Shown: positions 4,601-30,896 of the stretch, piece after piece
Layout: the number at the start of each line of letters is the position of its first letter
How positions within the stretch are numbered: the first letter of the stretch is position 1
Assembly: GCA_019638525.1 (NCBI GenBank)
Contig: JAHBTO010000008.1
Coordinates: forward strand, 21,535 to 85,534
Length of the DNA: 64,000 bases
Source: Ferruginibacter sp.
Lineage (GTDB): Bacteria; Bacteroidota; Bacteroidia; Chitinophagales; Chitinophagaceae
Direction: 5' to 3'
Notes under the pieces: generated by a model
What the model saw: the letters and a program-made list of their open reading frames with translations, nothing else
What the model was told of the DNA's origin: nothing
Databases searched by the model: none
Program-made: the position numbers and the translations under genes

Positions 4601-4702
4601 TCCATCAACAAACAATACGAAGAAAAAGTAAAAGCACTTTTACTGAAAGAGAAAATTGATAAGATAGAAAACACCGAAATGAAAAAGAAAGAGAAACAAT
4701 AA
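1625..4702 (+). CDS. Asp-box (BNR) repeat beta-propeller protein, sortilin/VPS10- or GH74-like, with C-terminal coiled-coil region
   Basis: 1025-aa ORF with a signal peptide and about 10 SxDxGxTW-type Asp boxes (STDEGENWTKI, STDGGNTFEKI, SIDGGKTWREL, SSDGGENWKQQ, TTDGGKNWTNV, SLDGGSNWFRM...). The C-terminal tail is Lys/Glu-rich. Confidence 0.85.
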   Translation: MFMKKFFPIACLLFLTNTTSAQISSATFGMMEARHIGPATMGGRLTAIEGVNSEPRTIYIGSAGGGVWKTTNAGVSFKSIFDKYCQSIGALAIDQQNPKIIFVGTGESNMRNSVSIGDGLYRSTDEGENWTKIKGLDSTEHISRIIIDPLNSKNIYVAAPGPLWSDSKHRGLYKSTDGGNTFEKILYINEQTGVADIAVNPANPSIVYATTWQFRRTPYSFNSGGKGSGIYKSIDGGKTWRELSKGLPPKPFGRTAIALAPSAPDNLLAIVEAENTGLYISSDGGENWKQQSATVNVVSRPFYFACLVIDPKDPKRVYRPGFGFSYSSDGGYSFADGGGNVHADHHALWINPNYTNQMYLGTDGGLYVSNDRGANWLMLPMLPVSQFYHVTYDFKQPYNVYGGLQDNQSWYAPTQSAGGIENNDWKNLGGGDGFWVQVDGINPDIVYSESQGGEIVHNDLKLGKAYSIKPQQALNDEKLRFNWNTPIVIGQKNKRNLYIASQYLYKSVDEGKNWIKISPDLTTNNKDKQKQEESGGLSADVTSAENHCTIFTIAESPLDENLVWAGTDDGNLQYTTDGGKNWTNVAKNYTAAGIPAQTWVSSIEPSRFDRNVVYASFDNHMYGDHKTYLAKSIDMGKTWTLFKSEEFTGFAHKIKEDNVNKDLLFAGTEMGLFASLDGGSNWFRMKNNIPWMALVRDIQIHPVTNDLILATHGRGIIIVDNITPMRNMTKEMAAKDVVVFNSKPINITMGKYYIGSGNGDGYIGTNSSQQAPIEYYFKDRVSRGEVKVEIYDKDGKLVQSIPGSKRKGINIVNWNMRGTPPKVASGGTKLDVGGFIAPMVLPGEYTVKLKVADKVYENKLTMQRDPDSDMTLADMEDQYNTAMQLYNMHVRLGKLVDSISANQKMLQQALDKLKNNKVKKLVQEYHDKLEDLRSKLLATKQKSLFADEKMLREDISDVYVSVCNQETRPSNLQKERTVVLLNRVGDAEKANASINKQYEEKVKALLLKEKIDKIENTEMKKKEKQ

Positions 4703-4748
4703 ACTGTTCAGTATTTTAAAATGCTGATATAAGATATTATTTTAAGTG

Positions 4749-4797
4749 CAGGTAAAACCAGTTTTTAAATTGTTGGTTTTACCTGTTCTTTTTTTAT
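4749..4797 (+). terminator. rho-independent terminator
   Basis: CAGGTAAAACCA (4749-4760) pairs with TGGTTTTACCTG (4774-4785) as a 12-bp perfect stem. It is followed by ttcttttttt. Confidence 0.75.
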
Positions 4798-4865
4798 TGC
4801 CACTGATAATTTCTTACTTCACAGTTACCTGTTCATTTTGTAACTTACCTTCTTAATTGTTTATT

Positions 4866-7800
4866 ATGAAAAAAAGAATACTGCTTTTATGCATTGTTGC
4901 CATTGCTGCAGGTGCAACTGCCCAAAAAAAATCAACAGCAAATAATAATGAGGATGATGTTTTACTAAGCAAGGTTAAATATCGCTTGGTGGGGCCTTAC
5001 CGTGGTGGCCGTAGCGGCGCTGTTGCCGGCGACCTACATCAAAAAAATACTTTTTACATGGGCGCTACCGGTGGTGGTGTTTGGAAAACTATTGATGGCG
5101 GCAGCAACTGGAAAAATATATCCGATAAATATTTTGGTGGCAGCATTGGTTGCGTAGCAGTAGCACCAAGCGACCCTACTATATTATATGTGGGCGAAGG
5201 CGAAAACACATTGAGGGGAAATGTTAGCGAAGGCTTTGGCATCTGGCGTTCAGATGATGGTGGCCGTAGCTGGCGCCACCTCGGTTTAAAAGATACAAGG
5301 CATATCATCCGCATCATCATTCACCCTAAAAACCCCGATATAGTTTGGGTGGCGGCAATAGGCCACTTGTTTGGCCCCAATACCGAACGGGGAGTTTTTA
5401 AAACCACCGATGGCGGAAAAACATGGAAAAAAGTTTTGTATGTAAATGAAAAAACCGCTTGCAGCGATTTGGTGATGGAACCGGGCAACCCTTCGGTATT
5501 GTATGCAGGCACCTGGCGCATACAACGAACACCATATAGCCTGGAGAGTGGTGGCGATGGTGGCGGGTTGTGGAAGAGTGTGGATGGCGGCGAAACTTGG
5601 AAAAATATTTCAAGCGCAAAGGGATTGCCTAAAGGTATTTGGGGAATTGTAGGTGTGGCAGTAAGCGCTTCAAATACCGATAAGATTTATGCTTTAATTG
5701 AAAACCACGATGGCGGCATGTTTGTAAGCAACGATGGCGGCGATAGTTGGGCATTGCAAAGCAACAGCAACGATATAAGGCAGCGTGCATGGTACTATAC
5801 AAAAGTTTTTGTTGACCCCAAAAACGAAAATGTTGTTTATGTTTTGAATGTTGATTTTTTGAAAAGCACCGATGGCGGAAAAACATATAAAGGCATTAAT
5901 ACACCGCATGGCGATCACCACGATTTATGGATAGACCCCGAAAACGGCAACCGTATGATTGTGGCAGATGATGGCGGCGCACAAGTAAGTTTTGATGGCG
6001 GCGATAACTGGAGCACTTACGAAAATCAACCCACAGCACAGTTTTACAGGGTAAGTACCGATAATCATTTTCCTTATCGCATACTTGGTGCACAGCAGGA
6101 TAATTCAACCGTAAGAATTTTATCACGCAGCGATGGCGGGCAAATAACAACCGATGACTGGCAACCAACTGCAGGTTCCGAAAGTGGATACGTAGTAGCC
6201 GATCCATTAAATCCTGATATTGTGTATGGCGGCAATTACAGTGGTTATCTCTCAAGGCTCGATCATAAAACAGGAGAGAACCGTGCTGTAAGTGTTTGGC
6301 CCGATGACCCATTGGGTAGTGGCGCCGATGTGGCTAAATACCGATTTCAGTGGAACTTCCCTATTTTCTTTTCGCCTCACAATCCAAAAAGATTGTATGC
6401 TGCGGGCAATCATTTGTTTGTTACTGAAAACGAAGGTGCATCATGGACTGCATTGGGTGGCGATTTAACAACTAATGATAAATCACGGCAGGCTTCAAGC
6501 GGTGGGCCAATTACAAAAGACAATACCGGCGTAGAAGTGTATTGTACAATTTTTACAGCAGCAGAATCGGCATTGGAAAAAGATTTGTTATGGACCGGCA
6601 GCGATGATGGTTTGATACATTTAAGTAAAGACGGAGGTAAAAACTGGGAAAACGTTACCCCCAAAGAAGCGGGCCAATGGATGATGTGGAATTGTGTGGA
6701 GACTGATCCGTTTAAAAAAGGCAAAGCTTATTTTGTTGGTACAAAATATAAGAGCGACGATTTTACCCCTTATATTTTTAAAACAGAAGATTATGGTAAA
6801 ACATGGATAAAGATAACCAATGGTATTGCGCCCATGCATTTTACCCGTTGTTTAAGAGCCGACCGTAAAAGGCCCGGTCTTTTGTATTGCGGTACCGAGT
6901 ATGGCATGTACATCAGTTACGATGATGGCGCTAACTGGAAACCTTTTCAATTGAATTTACCCGTAGTGCCCATCACCGATTTAACCATCAAAGAAAATGA
7001 TTTAATTGTAGCTACGCAGGGCAGGGCTTTTTGGGTGATTGACGACCTTACGATGGTACAACAAAAAGATAATAGCATACTAAACAAAAACCTTTTTGTA
7101 TTTCCTGTTAATGATGCCTATCGTTATAACGGGTATCAAAATCCAAAACCTGTTAATGCCGGTATGAACCCGCCCAATGGCTCGGTTATAAATTATTACC
7201 TAAAAAGTTTTTCCGATTCGGCAAAGTTTAGCATTACCATAATGGATAAGAATAAAAAATTGATAAAAACTTTTAGTAACAAAGCAAAAGAAAAAGCAGA
7301 TAAGATAGATGATATAAGCAGCGGGATGAACCGTTTTGTTTGGAATATGTATTACCCGCCTGCCGAAAGATTAGACGGGCAAGTGTTATGGCATGGCAGT
7401 GTACCCGGCCCCAAAGCTGCACCGGGCCAGTATTATTATAAAATTGTAGTTGACAAAGATTCGGCTGAAGGAAGTTTTATTATTAAGGCAAACCCGGTGT
7501 ACAACCTTACGCAGCAGGATTATGATGCACAGTTAAATTTCCTGCTATCGGTAAGGGATAAATTTGATGAGATACAAAAAGCTGTAAAAAACATTCGTAA
7601 CATTCGCAAACAAATAAATGGGTTTATTGATTTACAAGGCAAAGATGTGCCTAAAGAAATAAAACAACAGGCCGATACCATCAATAAACAAATAACAACC
7701 ATTGAAGAAGCGCTGCACCAAACAAAAGCAAAAAGCAGCCAGGATGTTTTAAATTACCCGATACGGCTTGATGATAAGATTTCGGGCTTGTACGATTTTG

Positions 7801-16011: not shown

Positions 16012-16027
16012 TTAACCAATTGGTTAA
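16012..16027. promoter_or_regulatory. perfect 16-bp palindrome TTAACCAATTGGTTAA, candidate TetR operator 1
   Basis: Read directly from the sequence, upstream of the TetR gene. A second near-identical copy lies 58 bp downstream. Confidence 0.55.
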
Positions 16028-16088: not shown

Positions 16089-16700
16089 ATGAAAAAGAAA
16101 GATAAAAACACTGAACAGGTGATATTACTGGCGGCCAGGAAAGTATTTATAGAAAAAGGGCTGGCAGGTTCACGCATGCAGGATATAGCCAACCAGGCAG
16201 GGCACAATAAGGCGTTGTTGCATTATTACTTCACATCAAAAAACAAACTGTTTGATATAGTTTTTGAGCAGGAAATTGGAAGTTTTTTCTCTCACCTGGC
16301 CGGTATATTAGCAGAAGAGTTGCCTTTGTTTGAAAAGATCGAAAAAATTGTATCGTTGGATATTGACAGGCTTACACAATTACCCGGTATGCCCAATTTT
16401 ATTATAAACGAGATGAACCAAAATCCCGATGTTATCTTAAAACGCCTTAAAAAAATACCTGTAGAAATGATATTGGGTAATTTTCAGAAACAGGTAAATG
16501 CTGAAATAAAAATGGGCGCCATCAGGAAAATAACAGCTCAGCAATTACTTATCAATATACAGTCGTTATGCATTTTCCCATTTATAGCCCGCCCAATGGT
16601 AAGGGGTATTTTTCAAATGGATGAAAAGGCTTACCTGGCCATGATGCAAAAAAGAAAAACTGAAGTGGCTGCATTCATTATTAATGCTATCAAAGTTTAA
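16089..16700 (+). CDS. TetR/AcrR family transcriptional regulator
   Basis: N-terminal HTH: ILLAARKVFIEKGLAGSRMQDIANQAGHNKALLHYYF. 203 aa, and first gene of the efflux operon. Confidence 0.9.
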   Translation: MKKKDKNTEQVILLAARKVFIEKGLAGSRMQDIANQAGHNKALLHYYFTSKNKLFDIVFEQEIGSFFSHLAGILAEELPLFEKIEKIVSLDIDRLTQLPGMPNFIINEMNQNPDVILKRLKKIPVEMILGNFQKQVNAEIKMGAIRKITAQQLLINIQSLCIFPFIARPMVRGIFQMDEKAYLAMMQKRKTEVAAFIINAIKV

Positions 16701-16712
16701 AAAAGTAAATCT

Positions 16713-17984
16713 ATGAAAAGTACAAGCTTTATAATTGCCGGTTTACTCTTAGCCGTAAATGGTTTATTTGCACAAAATAACCCAACACTTACGCTTGAAC
16801 AATGTTATCATTTTGCAACAACAAATACACCACTTGCACAGCAAAAGGCTTTAACAGTTACGGCAGGCAGCTTGCTTGAAAAAAACCAGGGCCTTAACTG
16901 GTTGCCACAGGTGAATGTGAACGCACAGGTAACTTACCAGTCAGAAGTAACTTCATTTCCTGTAAAACTGCCGGGCATTAATGTGGAAGAACTTAGTAAA
17001 GACCAATACAAGGGAACGCTTGAGATAACACAACCCATTTATGATGGTGGAATCATCAGTAGCCAAAAGAAACTTCAAAGCATAGCAGCAGGCATTGAAT
17101 CACAAAAAGTAGAAATTGATTTGTACCAGCTTAAATCTAAAGTGAATGCTTGTTTTTTTACAGCACTATTAATGGATGAAAATCTAAGGCTTATGCAATT
17201 TGTAATAAATGACCTCGACAATAATATTAAAAAAGTATCGGCACAGGCAAAAAACGGCATTGCCACAAACAGCAATGTGGATGTATTGAAAGCTGAGCAA
17301 TTAAAAGCATTGCAGCAGGTGATAGGTTTTAAAGCCACAAAAAATGCGGCCGTAGAAATGCTGGAAATACTTACAGCTACATCAATTGATAGCAATACGG
17401 TTTTTGAAAAGCCTGCACAAATAACTGTTTCTGCAGACACAATTATGCAACGGCCCGAATTGAAGTTATTTGATTTTCAAAAACAACAATTTCGGCAGCA
17501 AACCAAACTTATTAATGCTAAAGCAAATCCTAAGTTTTCGTTTTTTACAACCGGTGGTTATGGCAGGCCGGGTTTAAATATGCTTAAGAATGAATTTCAG
17601 TGGTATTATTTGGGCGGGGTAAAGCTTACCATCCCCATCATATCGCAGTTTACAAAGCATAAAGAAAAAGATGTAATTAAAATACAAGAGCAGATTGTGG
17701 ATAGGCAGAGAGAAAATTTTTTAAATAACAACCGCCAGGTGCTATCGCAACAAAAAAACGAAATAGAGAAATATAAAGCGCTTGTTAACTCGGATGAAGC
17801 CATCGTACAACTGCGAAAAAAAATAAAAGACAATGCATCATTCAAATTAGCCAATGGCATTATCACTTCTACTGATTACATCACCGAAATGAATGCCGAA
17901 AACCAGGCTATGTTAAATCAAAAACTGCATGAGATACAATGGTTACAGGCTCAATATAATTATCAACTGATTCTTGGAAAATAA
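16713..17984 (+). CDS. TolC-family outer-membrane efflux protein
   Basis: 423 aa with a signal peptide, a two-repeat coiled-coil/beta-barrel composition, and an operon context with HlyD and ABC-2 genes. Confidence 0.85.
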   Translation: MKSTSFIIAGLLLAVNGLFAQNNPTLTLEQCYHFATTNTPLAQQKALTVTAGSLLEKNQGLNWLPQVNVNAQVTYQSEVTSFPVKLPGINVEELSKDQYKGTLEITQPIYDGGIISSQKKLQSIAAGIESQKVEIDLYQLKSKVNACFFTALLMDENLRLMQFVINDLDNNIKKVSAQAKNGIATNSNVDVLKAEQLKALQQVIGFKATKNAAVEMLEILTATSIDSNTVFEKPAQITVSADTIMQRPELKLFDFQKQQFRQQTKLINAKANPKFSFFTTGGYGRPGLNMLKNEFQWYYLGGVKLTIPIISQFTKHKEKDVIKIQEQIVDRQRENFLNNNRQVLSQQKNEIEKYKALVNSDEAIVQLRKKIKDNASFKLANGIITSTDYITEMNAENQAMLNQKLHEIQWLQAQYNYQLILGK

Positions 17985-29190: not shown

Positions 29191-29351
29191 GCCGCAGGGC
29201 TGGAATTGTTGCTGTGTCAGCTCGGCAACTGAAGCCAATTGAAAAACTGAAGTTGAAGTTAACAACTAAAAGCCAAAGAATTCGGTCAAGCCCGATATTA
29301 GCTGATAGTAGTACAATTGCCGATTGTTACTACGTCCGCCAGCCTTGCGGC
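29191..29351 (+). other. GC-rich structured element (candidate ncRNA, leader or recombination-site remnant) closed by a 13-bp helix
   Basis: GCCGCAGGGCTGG (29191-29203) pairs with CCAGCCTTGCGGC (29339-29351) as 12 Watson-Crick pairs plus one G-U, the G-U holding only on the + strand. Internal hairpins are GTTGC/GCAAC (29208-12/29224-28), TCGG/CCGA (29282-85/29292-95) and GTAGTA/TACTAC (29308-13/29328-33). Confidence 0.35.
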
Positions 29352-29360
29352 AAACCTGTT

Positions 29361-29375
29361 GTTGTACGTGGTAAA
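29361..29375. repeat. left inverted repeat GTTGTACGTGGTAAA flanking the TA-chaperone cassette
   Basis: The reverse complement of 30882-30896 is GTTGTACGTGATAAA, a 14/15 match. Confidence 0.5.
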
Positions 29376-29424
29376 TTGTCGTAATCTGTTAATTTTTCTG
29401 TTTATTTGCACTCAAAATCAATAT

Positions 29425-29432
29425 TAAATTTG
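29425..29432 (+). promoter_or_regulatory. -7 promoter box TAAATTTG for the three-gene cassette
   Basis: It matches TAnnTTTG, lies 30 nt upstream of the first candidate start (TTG 29462), and is inside the inverted-repeat-bounded segment. Confidence 0.35.
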
Positions 29433-29461
29433 TTTTTATTAACCTATAGCTTAATTTCGTC

Positions 29462-29851
29462 TTGAAAAGAAAAGGTGTCATAATTGATAAAAGCTTGCAT
29501 GAAACAACTATAATAGTAGTTGATTTGTTAAATGCAGAAGAGATTTTGACATATATATTTAGGGAAAATGTTGAAGGGGAATTTCGTGAAATCCGTGATA
29601 TTTTAAAACAGAATTTAAGAATAAAAGATAAATATTGTAAAGCAGACGTTTCTAACAAAGCAAAAAATGTTTATGAAATGCGGTTTACAAAATCTGGAAA
29701 AAATGATCGAATATACTGTCAAGAACTACATACAAATAGAAAACGGTTTATTATAATGAGTGAACTGTTTGAAGGTAAAAAATCTCAAGACATACCTAAA
29801 AAAATTAAATCACGCATAGAAACAATTGGTTCATATGAGTACGAACTATAA
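29462..29851 (+). CDS. RelE-superfamily toxin, phage Gp49/HigB-like (addiction-module killer)
   Basis: The C-terminal two thirds, ..KAKNVYEMRFTKSGKNDRIYCQELHTNRKRFIIMSELFEGKKSQDIPKKIKSRIETI.., fit the Gp49-type pattern (xYE[LM]R..G.N.RI...(n)..I.. F.KK(T/S)QK(T)PKKEI). There is no in-frame ATG before codon 73. Candidate starts are TTG at 29462 or 29495. Confidence 0.7.
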   Translation: MKRKGVIIDKSLHETTIIVVDLLNAEEILTYIFRENVEGEFREIRDILKQNLRIKDKYCKADVSNKAKNVYEMRFTKSGKNDRIYCQELHTNRKRFIIMSELFEGKKSQDIPKKIKSRIETIGSYEYEL

Positions 29852-30353
29852 CAATCCTGACGAAATAAAGAGCCTTTACAGTAGTAACTTTTTCAGTAAC
29901 AAAAAGACTCATAGTGAAGTTAAACATCTTGCTCAAATGCTTATGTATAGATTTCTTAGTGAAATTGAAAAAATTACAGATGAGCGTAAAATTGTTAGAA
30001 AAGAATTAGCTAAACAGATTGGTGTTTCTGCAAGTTATTTGACACAATTATACAGAGGAGTCAAGCCTTTGAATATTGAAACTTTGGCAAAAATCGAACT
30101 TGTATTGGATTTTAGGTTTGATATTAAAGCAATTGAAAAATCATTATTAGAGGTAAATGATGCAACTGAATTTAATTGGAATGAAGAACAAATAAATAAT
30201 TTTATTCAAAAATTTAGTTGTAAAAATGGGTTTTGGATTTACAAAAATCATTCAAAATCAAATGGAAGTAAGGAATTTGATAAAATGAAAGAAGTGGATT
30301 ATTCAACTTTTGTTAAAACTTCCACTCCACAAAATAAATTACGGATTGCATAA
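29835..30353 (+). CDS. XRE-family HTH antitoxin (HigA-like) with ~75-aa C-terminal extension
   Basis: The ATG at 29835 (MSTNYNNPDE) overlaps the toxin 3' end by 17 nt. The HTH is RKELAKQIGVSASYLTQLYRGVKPLNIETLAKIELVL. The C-terminal extension contains the aromatic patch NGFWIYKNH. Confidence 0.8.
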   Translation: MSTNYNNPDEIKSLYSSNFFSNKKTHSEVKHLAQMLMYRFLSEIEKITDERKIVRKELAKQIGVSASYLTQLYRGVKPLNIETLAKIELVLDFRFDIKAIEKSLLEVNDATEFNWNEEQINNFIQKFSCKNGFWIYKNHSKSNGSKEFDKMKEVDYSTFVKTSTPQNKLRIA

Positions 30354-30880
30354 TGGAAATAATGAAATCACCTTTAGAACTTTTAGATTTTAATATTTTA
30401 AGATCTGAATATTCATTTGAACATCCTGTAGGTCAAGAAGAAATCAATGTCAGACAGATGGTTACGGATTACGTACTTGATTTTGATTACATGATTAAAA
30501 CAAGTGGAGAAAATCTATATGCAATTTTCACTAAGGTTATTGTAAATGATGGCGAAAATAAACTGCCAGGCCATTCAATCTTTGCTGAAGCTGTGAGTGT
30601 ATTTAGAATTAATCCAGAATTTCCTGATAAACTTGAAACTGACGATATAAAGTCTTTAATCAATTTTTCCGCAGTAACTATCGCATTTAGCAATATTCGT
30701 GGCTTCATATCAGATATTACTGCTTATACTCCGCCGGGAAAATATTTAGTTCCAATATTTGATTTGCAGTCTCTTATTAAGAAGAAGCAAGAAAAAATGT
30801 TACTCTTAAAAAAGGCTAATACTTCGCTTAAAGCAAAAGCTAACAAAAAAAAGATTGTCGCGAAAACGAAAAGAGGCTAA
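30353..30880 (+). CDS. SecB-like chaperone (TAC-type), Lys-rich C-terminal tail
   Basis: Its start overlaps the antitoxin stop (TAATG). The segment order parallels E. coli SecB:
- LLDFNILRSEYSFE vs FQIQRIYTKDISFE
- YAIFTKVIVND vs YEVVLRVTVTA
- IFAEAVSVFRIN vs FLCEVQQGGIFSI
- AVTIAFSNIRGFISDITAYTPPGKYLVPIFDL vs [32 protein letters not shown]. Confidence 0.7.
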   Translation: MEIMKSPLELLDFNILRSEYSFEHPVGQEEINVRQMVTDYVLDFDYMIKTSGENLYAIFTKVIVNDGENKLPGHSIFAEAVSVFRINPEFPDKLETDDIKSLINFSAVTIAFSNIRGFISDITAYTPPGKYLVPIFDLQSLIKKKQEKMLLLKKANTSLKAKANKKKIVAKTKRG

Positions 30881-30881
30881 T

Positions 30882-30896
30882 TTTATCACGTACAAC
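30882..30896. repeat. right inverted repeat TTTATCACGTACAAC flanking the TA-chaperone cassette
   Basis: It starts 2 nt after the chaperone stop codon and pairs with 29361-29375. Confidence 0.5.

Follow-up and report, generated by a model that had tools for sequence, protein, structure and literature searches.

The 64,000-nt stretch of DNA analysed here (the window; Ferruginibacter sp., contig JAHBTO010000008.1, nt 21535 – 85534) carries a cassette of three overlapping genes that is very likely to be a tripartite toxin-antitoxin-chaperone (TAC) operon, HigB/HigA/SecB-like in type and acquired by horizontal transfer. Its open reading frames (ORFs) are numbered ORF1 – ORF3 in order of occurrence, HTH denotes helix-turn-helix, and the features of the cassette and its genes are listed below, with positions counted from the first nucleotide of the window.

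29352..30896, + strand: the whole cassette, a 1545-bp segment common to other genomes, with a GC content of 28.8% against ~40% in the flanks
29462..29851, + strand: ORF1, toxin; TTG start, 129 aa, Gp49/HigB2-like, RelE superfamily
29835..30353 (ATG start, 172 aa) or from the TTG at 29826 (175 aa), + strand: ORF2, antitoxin; HigA-like XRE protein
29988..30119, + strand: HTH DNA-binding domain of ORF2 (Pfam HTH_3)
30132..30350, + strand: C-terminal extension of ORF2, ~73 aa after the HTH domain, a putative chaperone-addiction (ChAD) region
30228-30242, + strand: aromatic patch GFWIY in the ORF2 tail (within GFWIYKNH)
30294-30311, + strand: VDYSTF in the ORF2 tail
30345-30350, + strand: terminal Ile-Ala of ORF2 (the protein ends ...KLRIA)
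30353..30880, + strand: ORF3, SecB-like chaperone; ATG start, 175 aa, core to about residue 140
30773-30877, + strand: Lys-rich tail of ORF3 (last 35 residues: 14 K/R, 1 D/E)

With the ORF2 start taken as the ATG at nt 29835 (MSTNY...), which gives the N-terminus common to orthologues, ORF1 and ORF2 overlap by 17 nt, and the stop codon of ORF2 shares one base with the start codon of ORF3 (TAATG). Toxin, antitoxin and chaperone genes that overlap or are closely spaced within one operon are characteristic of TAC systems, for which a definition that includes the ChAD region has been published (PMC5105189, PMC3581621), and the same order recurs in 45 related loci. By ORF and sequence reading, the three positions and their coupling are as the initial annotation had placed them, and every peptide motif it quoted was found in the ORF translations.

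ORF1 is a divergent Gp49/HigB2-type member of the RelE superfamily, in line with its earlier description as Gp49/HigB-like. Its 86 close homologues are conserved across the full 129 aa, including the N-terminus, which supports the TTG at nt 29462 as the start. Pfam Gp49 (PF05973) is matched at E<1 by 20 of 38 aligned relatives, the sole one to pass the gathering score being P0095 (42% identical to ORF1, named a RelE/ParE-family toxin by NCBI; 24.0 bits against 23.9, residues 40-117). The AlphaFold2 model of ORF1 (predicted local distance difference test, pLDDT, 92; predicted template modelling score, pTM, 0.85) displays the RelE/HigB2 fold: the top 9 fold matches in the PDB are all V. cholerae HigB2 (probability 0.77-0.99, template modelling (TM) score ~0.5), while HigB1 of Mycobacterium tuberculosis (Mtb) is 10th and a YoeB/ParE toxin 14th. 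Within the family R53, K60, R74 and R83 are invariant and Tyr127 is nearly so. These basic residues and the tyrosine are compatible with ribosome-dependent mRNA cleavage, an activity that membership of a RelE-type family would also suggest.

ORF2 contains an HTH_3 domain (E=1.3e-6; score 28.7 bits, cut-off 23; residues 55-98 when counted along the 175-aa form) and also matches HTH_26 (E=4.7e-6), i.e. a domain of the HTH_3 type is encoded downstream of the toxin, as in HigA/XRE antitoxins. The recognition region, SASY[IL]TQL[FY]RG, is the best-conserved antitoxin segment across 70 orthologues. The XRE domain followed by a long C-terminal extension with an aromatic patch, which had been noticed previously, is confirmed by this match and by the ~73 residues that include GFWIY. 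By sequence, GFWIYKNH and VDYSTF together are motifs of the SecB-binding type, and EFNW is also present in the tail; in Mtb, the TAC chaperone SecB(TA) binds aromatic residues of the ChAD (PMC6377645). The terminal Ile-Ala may be a degron of the ClpXP type; ClpX recognises known degrons of comparable sequence, Val-Ala at the C-terminus of Mtb HigA1 and Ala-Ala at that of the antitoxin CmdA (bioRxiv 10.1101/2024.02.24.581848).

ORF3 is a remote homologue of SecB, a conclusion on which PADLOC, Pfam searches of relatives, profile alignment and fold search concur. The best PADLOC match of ORF3 is PD-T4-9_C, the CmdC model (E=1.6e-4), which is matched in addition by 13 of 46 ORF3 relatives, down to 2.7e-6; CmdC is the SecB-like chaperone of CmdTAC (PMC9519451). 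Pfam SecB (PF02556) is matched by 22 of 46 diverse relatives from genomes (best 3e-5) and is by far the most frequent family among them. When the profile of the ORF3 family was compared to the PDB, E. coli SecB aligned collinearly (19-148 vs 20-145, E=0.04), and hhalign returned a collinear alignment of the family to the same protein over 127 columns (E=1.2e-4). Only two residues, R116 and P134, are invariant in the ORF3 family; their counterparts in the SecB alignment are the Arg in its first helix and the Pro that follows. The AlphaFold2 model has the beta-beta-beta-beta-alpha-alpha topology of SecB, and the top 16 PDB matches in Foldseek are all SecB (H. influenzae, E. coli) or Mtb Rv1957 (E ~2e-4 to 9e-4, TM <=0.64), so that the SecB-like nature proposed for this protein in the initial annotation is borne out at the level of the fold as well. 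The best viral matches in BFVD are phage proteins named SecB. In a HMMER scan of 1.84 billion representative proteins, the ORF3 family comprised 377 clusters at E<=1e-3 and 235 at E<=1e-10; among the names given by the Joint Genome Institute, one related cluster is a 'preprotein translocase subunit SecB', and the window's own cluster is a 'hypothetical protein'. PADLOC also gave a weak match of ORF2 and ORF3 to its candidate system 'PDC-M64', of which no mention was found in the literature.

While ORF3 shares with canonical SecB (E. coli, H. influenzae; PF02556) the predicted topology, a collinear profile alignment of ~127 residues and the conserved Arg and Pro, it is not a canonical export SecB. 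It scores below the PF02556 gathering score, is borne on a cassette of patchy distribution, and has a basic tail where canonical SecB has an acidic, SecA-binding one. The Lys-rich tail reported earlier is indeed present, with 14 K/R to 1 D/E in the final 35 residues, and over the last 25 residues the ORF3 family has a median net charge of +3 (range -6 to +10), compared to -5 in E. coli SecB. That ORF3 might nevertheless be a housekeeping export chaperone, adjoining a toxin-antitoxin pair by chance, is suggested by relatives auto-annotated as 'preprotein translocase subunit SecB' and by the ability of TAC chaperones to replace E. coli SecB (PMC3581621, PMC5105189). This is scarcely credible, since the gene sits inside a mobile cassette of 28.8% GC that is patchily distributed over varied contexts, is missing from many close relatives of the toxin-antitoxin pair, and encodes a strongly basic tail; moreover, Bacteroidetes contributed only 9 of 3813 SecB sequences surveyed (PMC4361572).

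The relationship between the antitoxin tail and the chaperone gene could be followed across the family. Genomes were scanned with the toxin family, one genome per species (the diverse ORF3 alignment is too variable to drive a locus scan), and the 80 loci recovered were analysed together with the window and two metagenome loci. Nearly all of the 80 are from Bacteroidota (Chitinophagales, Flavobacteriales, Bacteroidales, Cytophagales), the few outside being from Ignavibacteriaceae, Balneolales and one Sericytochromatia metagenome-assembled genome (MAG). An ORF3-family gene directly follows the antitoxin gene in 45 loci, which provides the survey of three-gene synteny that the initial annotation had called for, and it is absent in 25, where only loci with enough downstream sequence to tell were counted as absent. 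The two groups of antitoxins compare as follows.

Antitoxin length, median (range): 157 aa (145-177) with the chaperone gene, 135 aa (110-157) without (Mann-Whitney p=7e-11)
Antitoxin tail after the HTH, median: 59 aa with the chaperone gene, 37 aa without
Aromatic residues in the tail, median: 7 with the chaperone gene, 2 without (Mann-Whitney p=7.5e-11)
G[FYSL]W motif in the tail: 24/45 with the chaperone gene, 1/25 without
Terminal Ala of the antitoxin (often VA, IA, TAA or LAAA): 39/45 with the chaperone gene, 0/25 without (Fisher p=1e-13)

Across the family, then, the tail, its aromatic residues and the C-terminal Ala occur essentially only alongside the SecB-like gene. An extension that chaperone-less homologues do not have is a further characteristic of TAC systems, and here the longer tails track the chaperone gene. 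This pattern is what the chaperone-addiction model predicts, in which the extension is a liability retained only with its chaperone, and an antitoxin rid of it is self-sufficient (PMC5105189). In a neighbour-joining tree of the toxins, loci with and without the chaperone gene are intermingled, parsimony requiring 15 or more changes between the two states, and the association of tail and chaperone is therefore not the product of one phylogenetic split. One case is provided by two genomes that are 98.7% identical (L037 and L038): compared with L038, L037 has an unrelated 306-aa ORF in place of both the chaperone gene and the part of the antitoxin gene that encodes the tail (L037 nt 4674-5901 vs L038 nt 4674-5534). 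The break lies immediately downstream of the HTH domain, and the antitoxin of L037 is left with 110 aa.

The TAC interpretation has thus stood up in each of its testable parts, namely the family and fold of the toxin, the HTH domain with its extension, and the remote homology of ORF3 to SecB. Several observations weigh against it. By itself, ORF1 has no meaningful match in Pfam, NCBIfam, PADLOC or PDB sequences, its family profile produced only a single chance match among PDB sequences, and its fold matches are of modest E-value (5.6e-3) with a TM score of ~0.5. ORF3 by itself has no significant match in Pfam (none at E<=10), NCBIfam or PDB sequences, a profile of the 10 closest ORF3 sequences had no match in the PDB, and its model is moderate (pLDDT 64, the other four models 37-52; TM ~0.5-0.64). 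The Pfam searches that had been suggested therefore succeeded for ORF2 (HTH_3) and gave nothing significant for ORF1 and ORF3 themselves, which are assigned at the level of family and fold only. Within the family, 6 of the 45 tail-bearing antitoxins end without Ala, and three loci (L036, L061 and L073) keep a long antitoxin (147-157 aa) with no ORF3-family gene detected downstream; these tails might depend on a different or unlinked chaperone, or be of other origin. The HigBAC system of E. coli is independent of ClpXP (bioRxiv 10.1101/2024.02.24.581848), and the reading of the terminal Ala as a degron therefore stays tentative. Finally, toxicity, chaperone dependence, formation of a tetramer, operator binding and an anti-phage role are, all five, predictions.

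Some of these same points could be taken to mean that the locus is a plain HigBA pair followed by an unrelated third gene, the likeness of ORF3 to SecB being coincidental or reflecting some other function (e.g. a hot-dog-like fold, or nucleic-acid binding via the Lys-rich tail). To the missing Pfam and PDB sequence matches of ORF3 and the moderate confidence of its model may be added that thioesterase (hot-dog) folds occur lower in the fold-search list, and that canonical SecB has an acidic tail whereas that of ORF3 is basic. An unrelated third gene is very improbable, however, as the tail, the aromatic motifs and the terminal Ala track ORF3 over at least 15 independent gains or losses, ORF2 and ORF3 overlap at their stop and start codons, and four separate analyses tie the family to SecB or CmdC, the hot-dog matches being ~100-fold weaker than those to SecB.

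The cassette of the window is a new, uncharacterised member of the TAC systems already described (Mtb HigBA1-SecB and E. coli HigBAC), and not a novel type of system. The initial annotation had regarded it as the best candidate for an uncharacterised system; this cannot be maintained, as TAC systems including the anti-phage HigBAC have been published, and the SecB name is already attached by automatic annotation to some relatives of ORF3. The Mtb system HigB1-HigA1-SecB(TA) (Rv1955-Rv1956-Rv1957; PMC3581621, PMC5105189, PMC6377645) resembles it in the order toxin-antitoxin-chaperone, in having overlapping genes within one operon, in a Gp49-family toxin of the RelE superfamily, in an XRE-HTH antitoxin with an extension that carries Trp/Tyr motifs, and in a third protein of SecB fold, Rv1957 (5mtw) being among the top fold matches of ORF3. 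The last residue of the antitoxin is Ala in both systems, preceded by an aliphatic one (Val-Ala in HigA1 and Ile-Ala in the window), and both show signs of horizontal acquisition. They differ in that none of the three proteins has detectable pairwise sequence similarity to its Mtb counterpart, the chaperones being ~13-14% identical in structural alignment, and in the tail motifs, which are GFWIY/DY in the window and WHRLSSYR in Mtb. The system of the window further has a long Lys-rich chaperone tail and a Bacteroidota host, and is known from sequence alone.

HigBAC of E. coli NT1F31, an anti-phage system (bioRxiv 10.1101/2024.02.24.581848; Cell Host Microbe 2024, cited in PMC11980606), similarly consists of a HigB-type toxin, a long-tailed HigA and a SecB-like HigC. 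The tail of its HigA is 96 aa, compared to ~73 aa in the window, and spaced aromatic residues are its recognition elements. HigBAC is prophage-borne, whereas the window has a bare chromosomal cassette; and while inactivation of HigA is ClpXP-independent in E. coli, the near-universal terminal Ala in the family of the window suggests a degron. Triggering of the cassette in the window could plausibly be modelled on HigBAC, with a phage protein and the antitoxin tail competing for the chaperone. CmdTAC (PD-T4-9; PMC9519451, PMC11618068) has the three-gene TAC layout, a chaperone model that matches ORF3, and an antitoxin, CmdA, ending in Ala-Ala that is recognised by ClpX. Its toxin CmdT is an mRNA ADP-ribosyltransferase and not of RelE fold, and its antitoxin is unrelated, so that the chaperone module alone is in common; the cassette was rejected as a CmdTAC system, since ORF1 has no PADLOC match and has a HigB2-like fold, not that of CmdT. 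The two-gene pairs HigBA2 of V. cholerae and gp49-gp48 of phage N15 share the toxin fold, the toxin-first order and the XRE antitoxin, and have neither a chaperone gene nor an antitoxin extension. Plain pairs of this kind number 25 inside the window's own family. Work on TAC systems has dealt with Mycobacterium and Proteobacteria, and no paper on TAC systems in Bacteroidota was found in the literature; the text consulted of Sala et al. reports TAC in seven phyla with no mention of Bacteroidetes.

The cassette is the deepest GC trough of the window, with 28.8% over nt 29352-30896 compared to ~40% in the 5 kb on each side. A MAG contig from Chitinophagales (L003) carries a copy that is 90.6% identical (blastn) across these 1545 bp, where the similarity ends abruptly on both sides and the flanks are unrelated. 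Two metagenome contigs (L001 and L002) have an 81% identical copy (blastn) between glycoside hydrolase (GH88) and SusC/D genes, in a polysaccharide-utilisation locus. The low GC content and the differing flanks of these copies point to the cassette as the unit that moves, and to its foreign origin in the window. Identity between the window and L003 is 96% for the ORF1 protein and 91% for that of ORF3, i.e. at or above that of the DNA, and the genes are therefore under purifying selection. Near the ends of the shared segment lies a short inverted repeat:

29361..29375, no strand assigned: left arm GTTGTACGTGGTAAA of a 15-nt inverted repeat, 14/15 (93%) complementary to the right arm
30882..30896, no strand assigned: right arm TTTATCACGTACAAC, at the opposite end of the 1545 bp in common with L003

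L003 carries this repeat too, and nothing comparable was found in the other ~40 TAC loci. It may be a remnant of insertion in the lineage of the window and L003, or a chance occurrence; terminal inverted repeats were rejected as a general signature of mobility, being confined to that lineage. A 56-aa ORF (nt 29214-29384, + strand) ends just within the left edge of the cassette. It has no Pfam match, only its last ~30 nt are common to L003, and it is probably not a gene. To the left of the cassette are genes for an isocitrate dehydrogenase, a GNAT acetyltransferase and a small membrane ORF, and to the right those for a pyridoxal phosphate-dependent enzyme of Cys/Met metabolism and a DinB-family protein. 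Across the window (nt 1-64000) there were no Rfam families at the gathering score, and no tRNA or tmRNA genes.

Two candidate regulatory elements precede the toxin gene:

29425..29432, + strand: candidate promoter TAAATTTG, matching the Bacteroidetes -7 consensus TAnnTTTG; the function is putative
29439..29454, no strand assigned: putative operator, a 16-bp near-palindrome TTAACCTATAGCTTAA, 23 nt upstream of the toxin start codon

The -7 promoter consensus of Bacteroidetes is TAnnTTTG, and a match to it occurs 28-41 nt upstream of the toxin start in ~16 related loci. A scan for sigma-70 promoters found 11 sites where 8.4 were expected, which is uninformative for AT-rich Bacteroidota sequence, and a scan for terminators found 3 sites (0.8 expected), none of them tied to the operon. 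Of 81 loci, 72 carry the palindrome TTAACCTATAGCTTAA at about -20, frequently as an exact copy and otherwise with up to 3 mismatches, compared to 3 matches in 548 kb of flanking DNA. It is better conserved than the proteins, which fall to 35-40% identity. It is probably bound by the antitoxin, to judge by the conservation of both the palindrome and the recognition region of the HTH domain; antitoxins of other HigBA systems bind their operators (PMC11980606). Elsewhere in the window, a perfect 16-bp palindrome, TTAACCAATTGGTTAA (nt 16012-16027), lies 62 nt upstream of an ORF for a 203-aa TetR-like regulator (nt 16089-16700), which is followed by an outer-membrane efflux-like ORF (nt 16713-17984). 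It was considered as a second copy of the TAC operator on the basis of its half-site likeness, and rejected as belonging to the TetR/efflux locus, where it is probably the operator of the adjacent regulator.

By analogy to Mtb HigBA1-SecB(TA) and E. coli HigBAC, the toxin would cleave mRNA on the ribosome, and a dimer of the antitoxin would both neutralise the toxin and repress the operon via the palindrome. The tail would render the antitoxin prone to aggregation, proteolysis or both, with the terminal Ile-Ala as a possible degron of the ClpXP type, so that a functional antitoxin would require its aromatic tail patches (GFWIY, DY) to be held by a SecB-like tetramer. Titration or removal of the chaperone would then free the toxin and stop translation. 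A phage structural protein would be the likeliest trigger, unfolded-protein stress a less likely one.

The most likely role of such a system appears to be phage defence by abortive infection, although this is the least secure step of the proposal. It is favoured because CmdTAC, MqsRAC and HigBAC of E. coli all protect against phages, and in HigBAC a phage tail protein and the antitoxin tail compete to bind the chaperone (PMC9519451; bioRxiv 10.1101/2024.02.24.581848). The 72 immediate large neighbours of cassettes in ~40 other genomes include four prokaryotic Argonautes (pAgo), type I and type IIG restriction-modification genes, two AbiD, two AbiEi and two MADS mad2 (a survey run with no control set, which counts against leaning on it), and in L037 and L038 the gene immediately upstream of the cassette encodes a type I restriction R subunit (HsdR).

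A genuine TAC system could instead serve in a stress response, in which unfolded proteins titrate the chaperone, as was originally suggested for the Mtb TAC system, or in genetic addiction and self-stabilisation. The cassette of the window lies between housekeeping genes (see above) with no defence genes adjoining and is not within a defence island, the L001/L002 copy is inside a polysaccharide-utilisation locus, no relatives of ORF3 were found on plasmid and phage records by tblastn, and none of the toxin family on IMG/VR viral contigs. Each of these detracts from a defensive role, and the Mtb TAC system is reported to be stress-responsive (PMC3581621). With defence genes (pAgo, restriction-modification, AbiD, AbiE, MADS) often adjacent in other genomes, and with protection against phage seen in the E. 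coli TAC systems tested (PMC9519451; bioRxiv 10.1101/2024.02.24.581848), a role in stress or addiction to the exclusion of defence is possible and on balance unlikely, and the roles are not mutually exclusive. A bolder and rather doubtful suggestion is that the SecB-like clade of Bacteroidota (377 clusters at 50% identity, most of them sub-threshold for Pfam SecB and typically with a basic tail) consists of phage sensors whose triggers and partner contacts differ from those of TAC chaperones in Proteobacteria and mycobacteria. Possible examples are tethering to ribosomes or nucleic acid by the Lys-rich tail, obligatory degradation of the ClpXP type by way of the near-universal terminal Ala of the antitoxins, or cross-regulation between copies through the almost invariant operator.

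The value of the locus lies in the large, poorly annotated Bacteroidota family to which it leads and in the comparative evidence this provides on chaperone addiction. A large uncharacterised TAC family is now seen in the Chitinophagales, Flavobacteriales, Bacteroidales and Cytophagales, with many of its chaperones too divergent for standard annotation. The family amounts to a natural deletion series, in which the features of the tail vanish with the chaperone gene, and this supports the chaperone-addiction model without experiment; the repeated joint loss of chaperone and tail would make it a natural system for studying how such addiction evolves. The GFWIY and DY motifs, the terminal Ile-Ala and the 16-bp operator are handles for experiment. 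Should the role be anti-phage, these cassettes would be an extra defence system in Bacteroidota, where few functional tests of defence genes exist.

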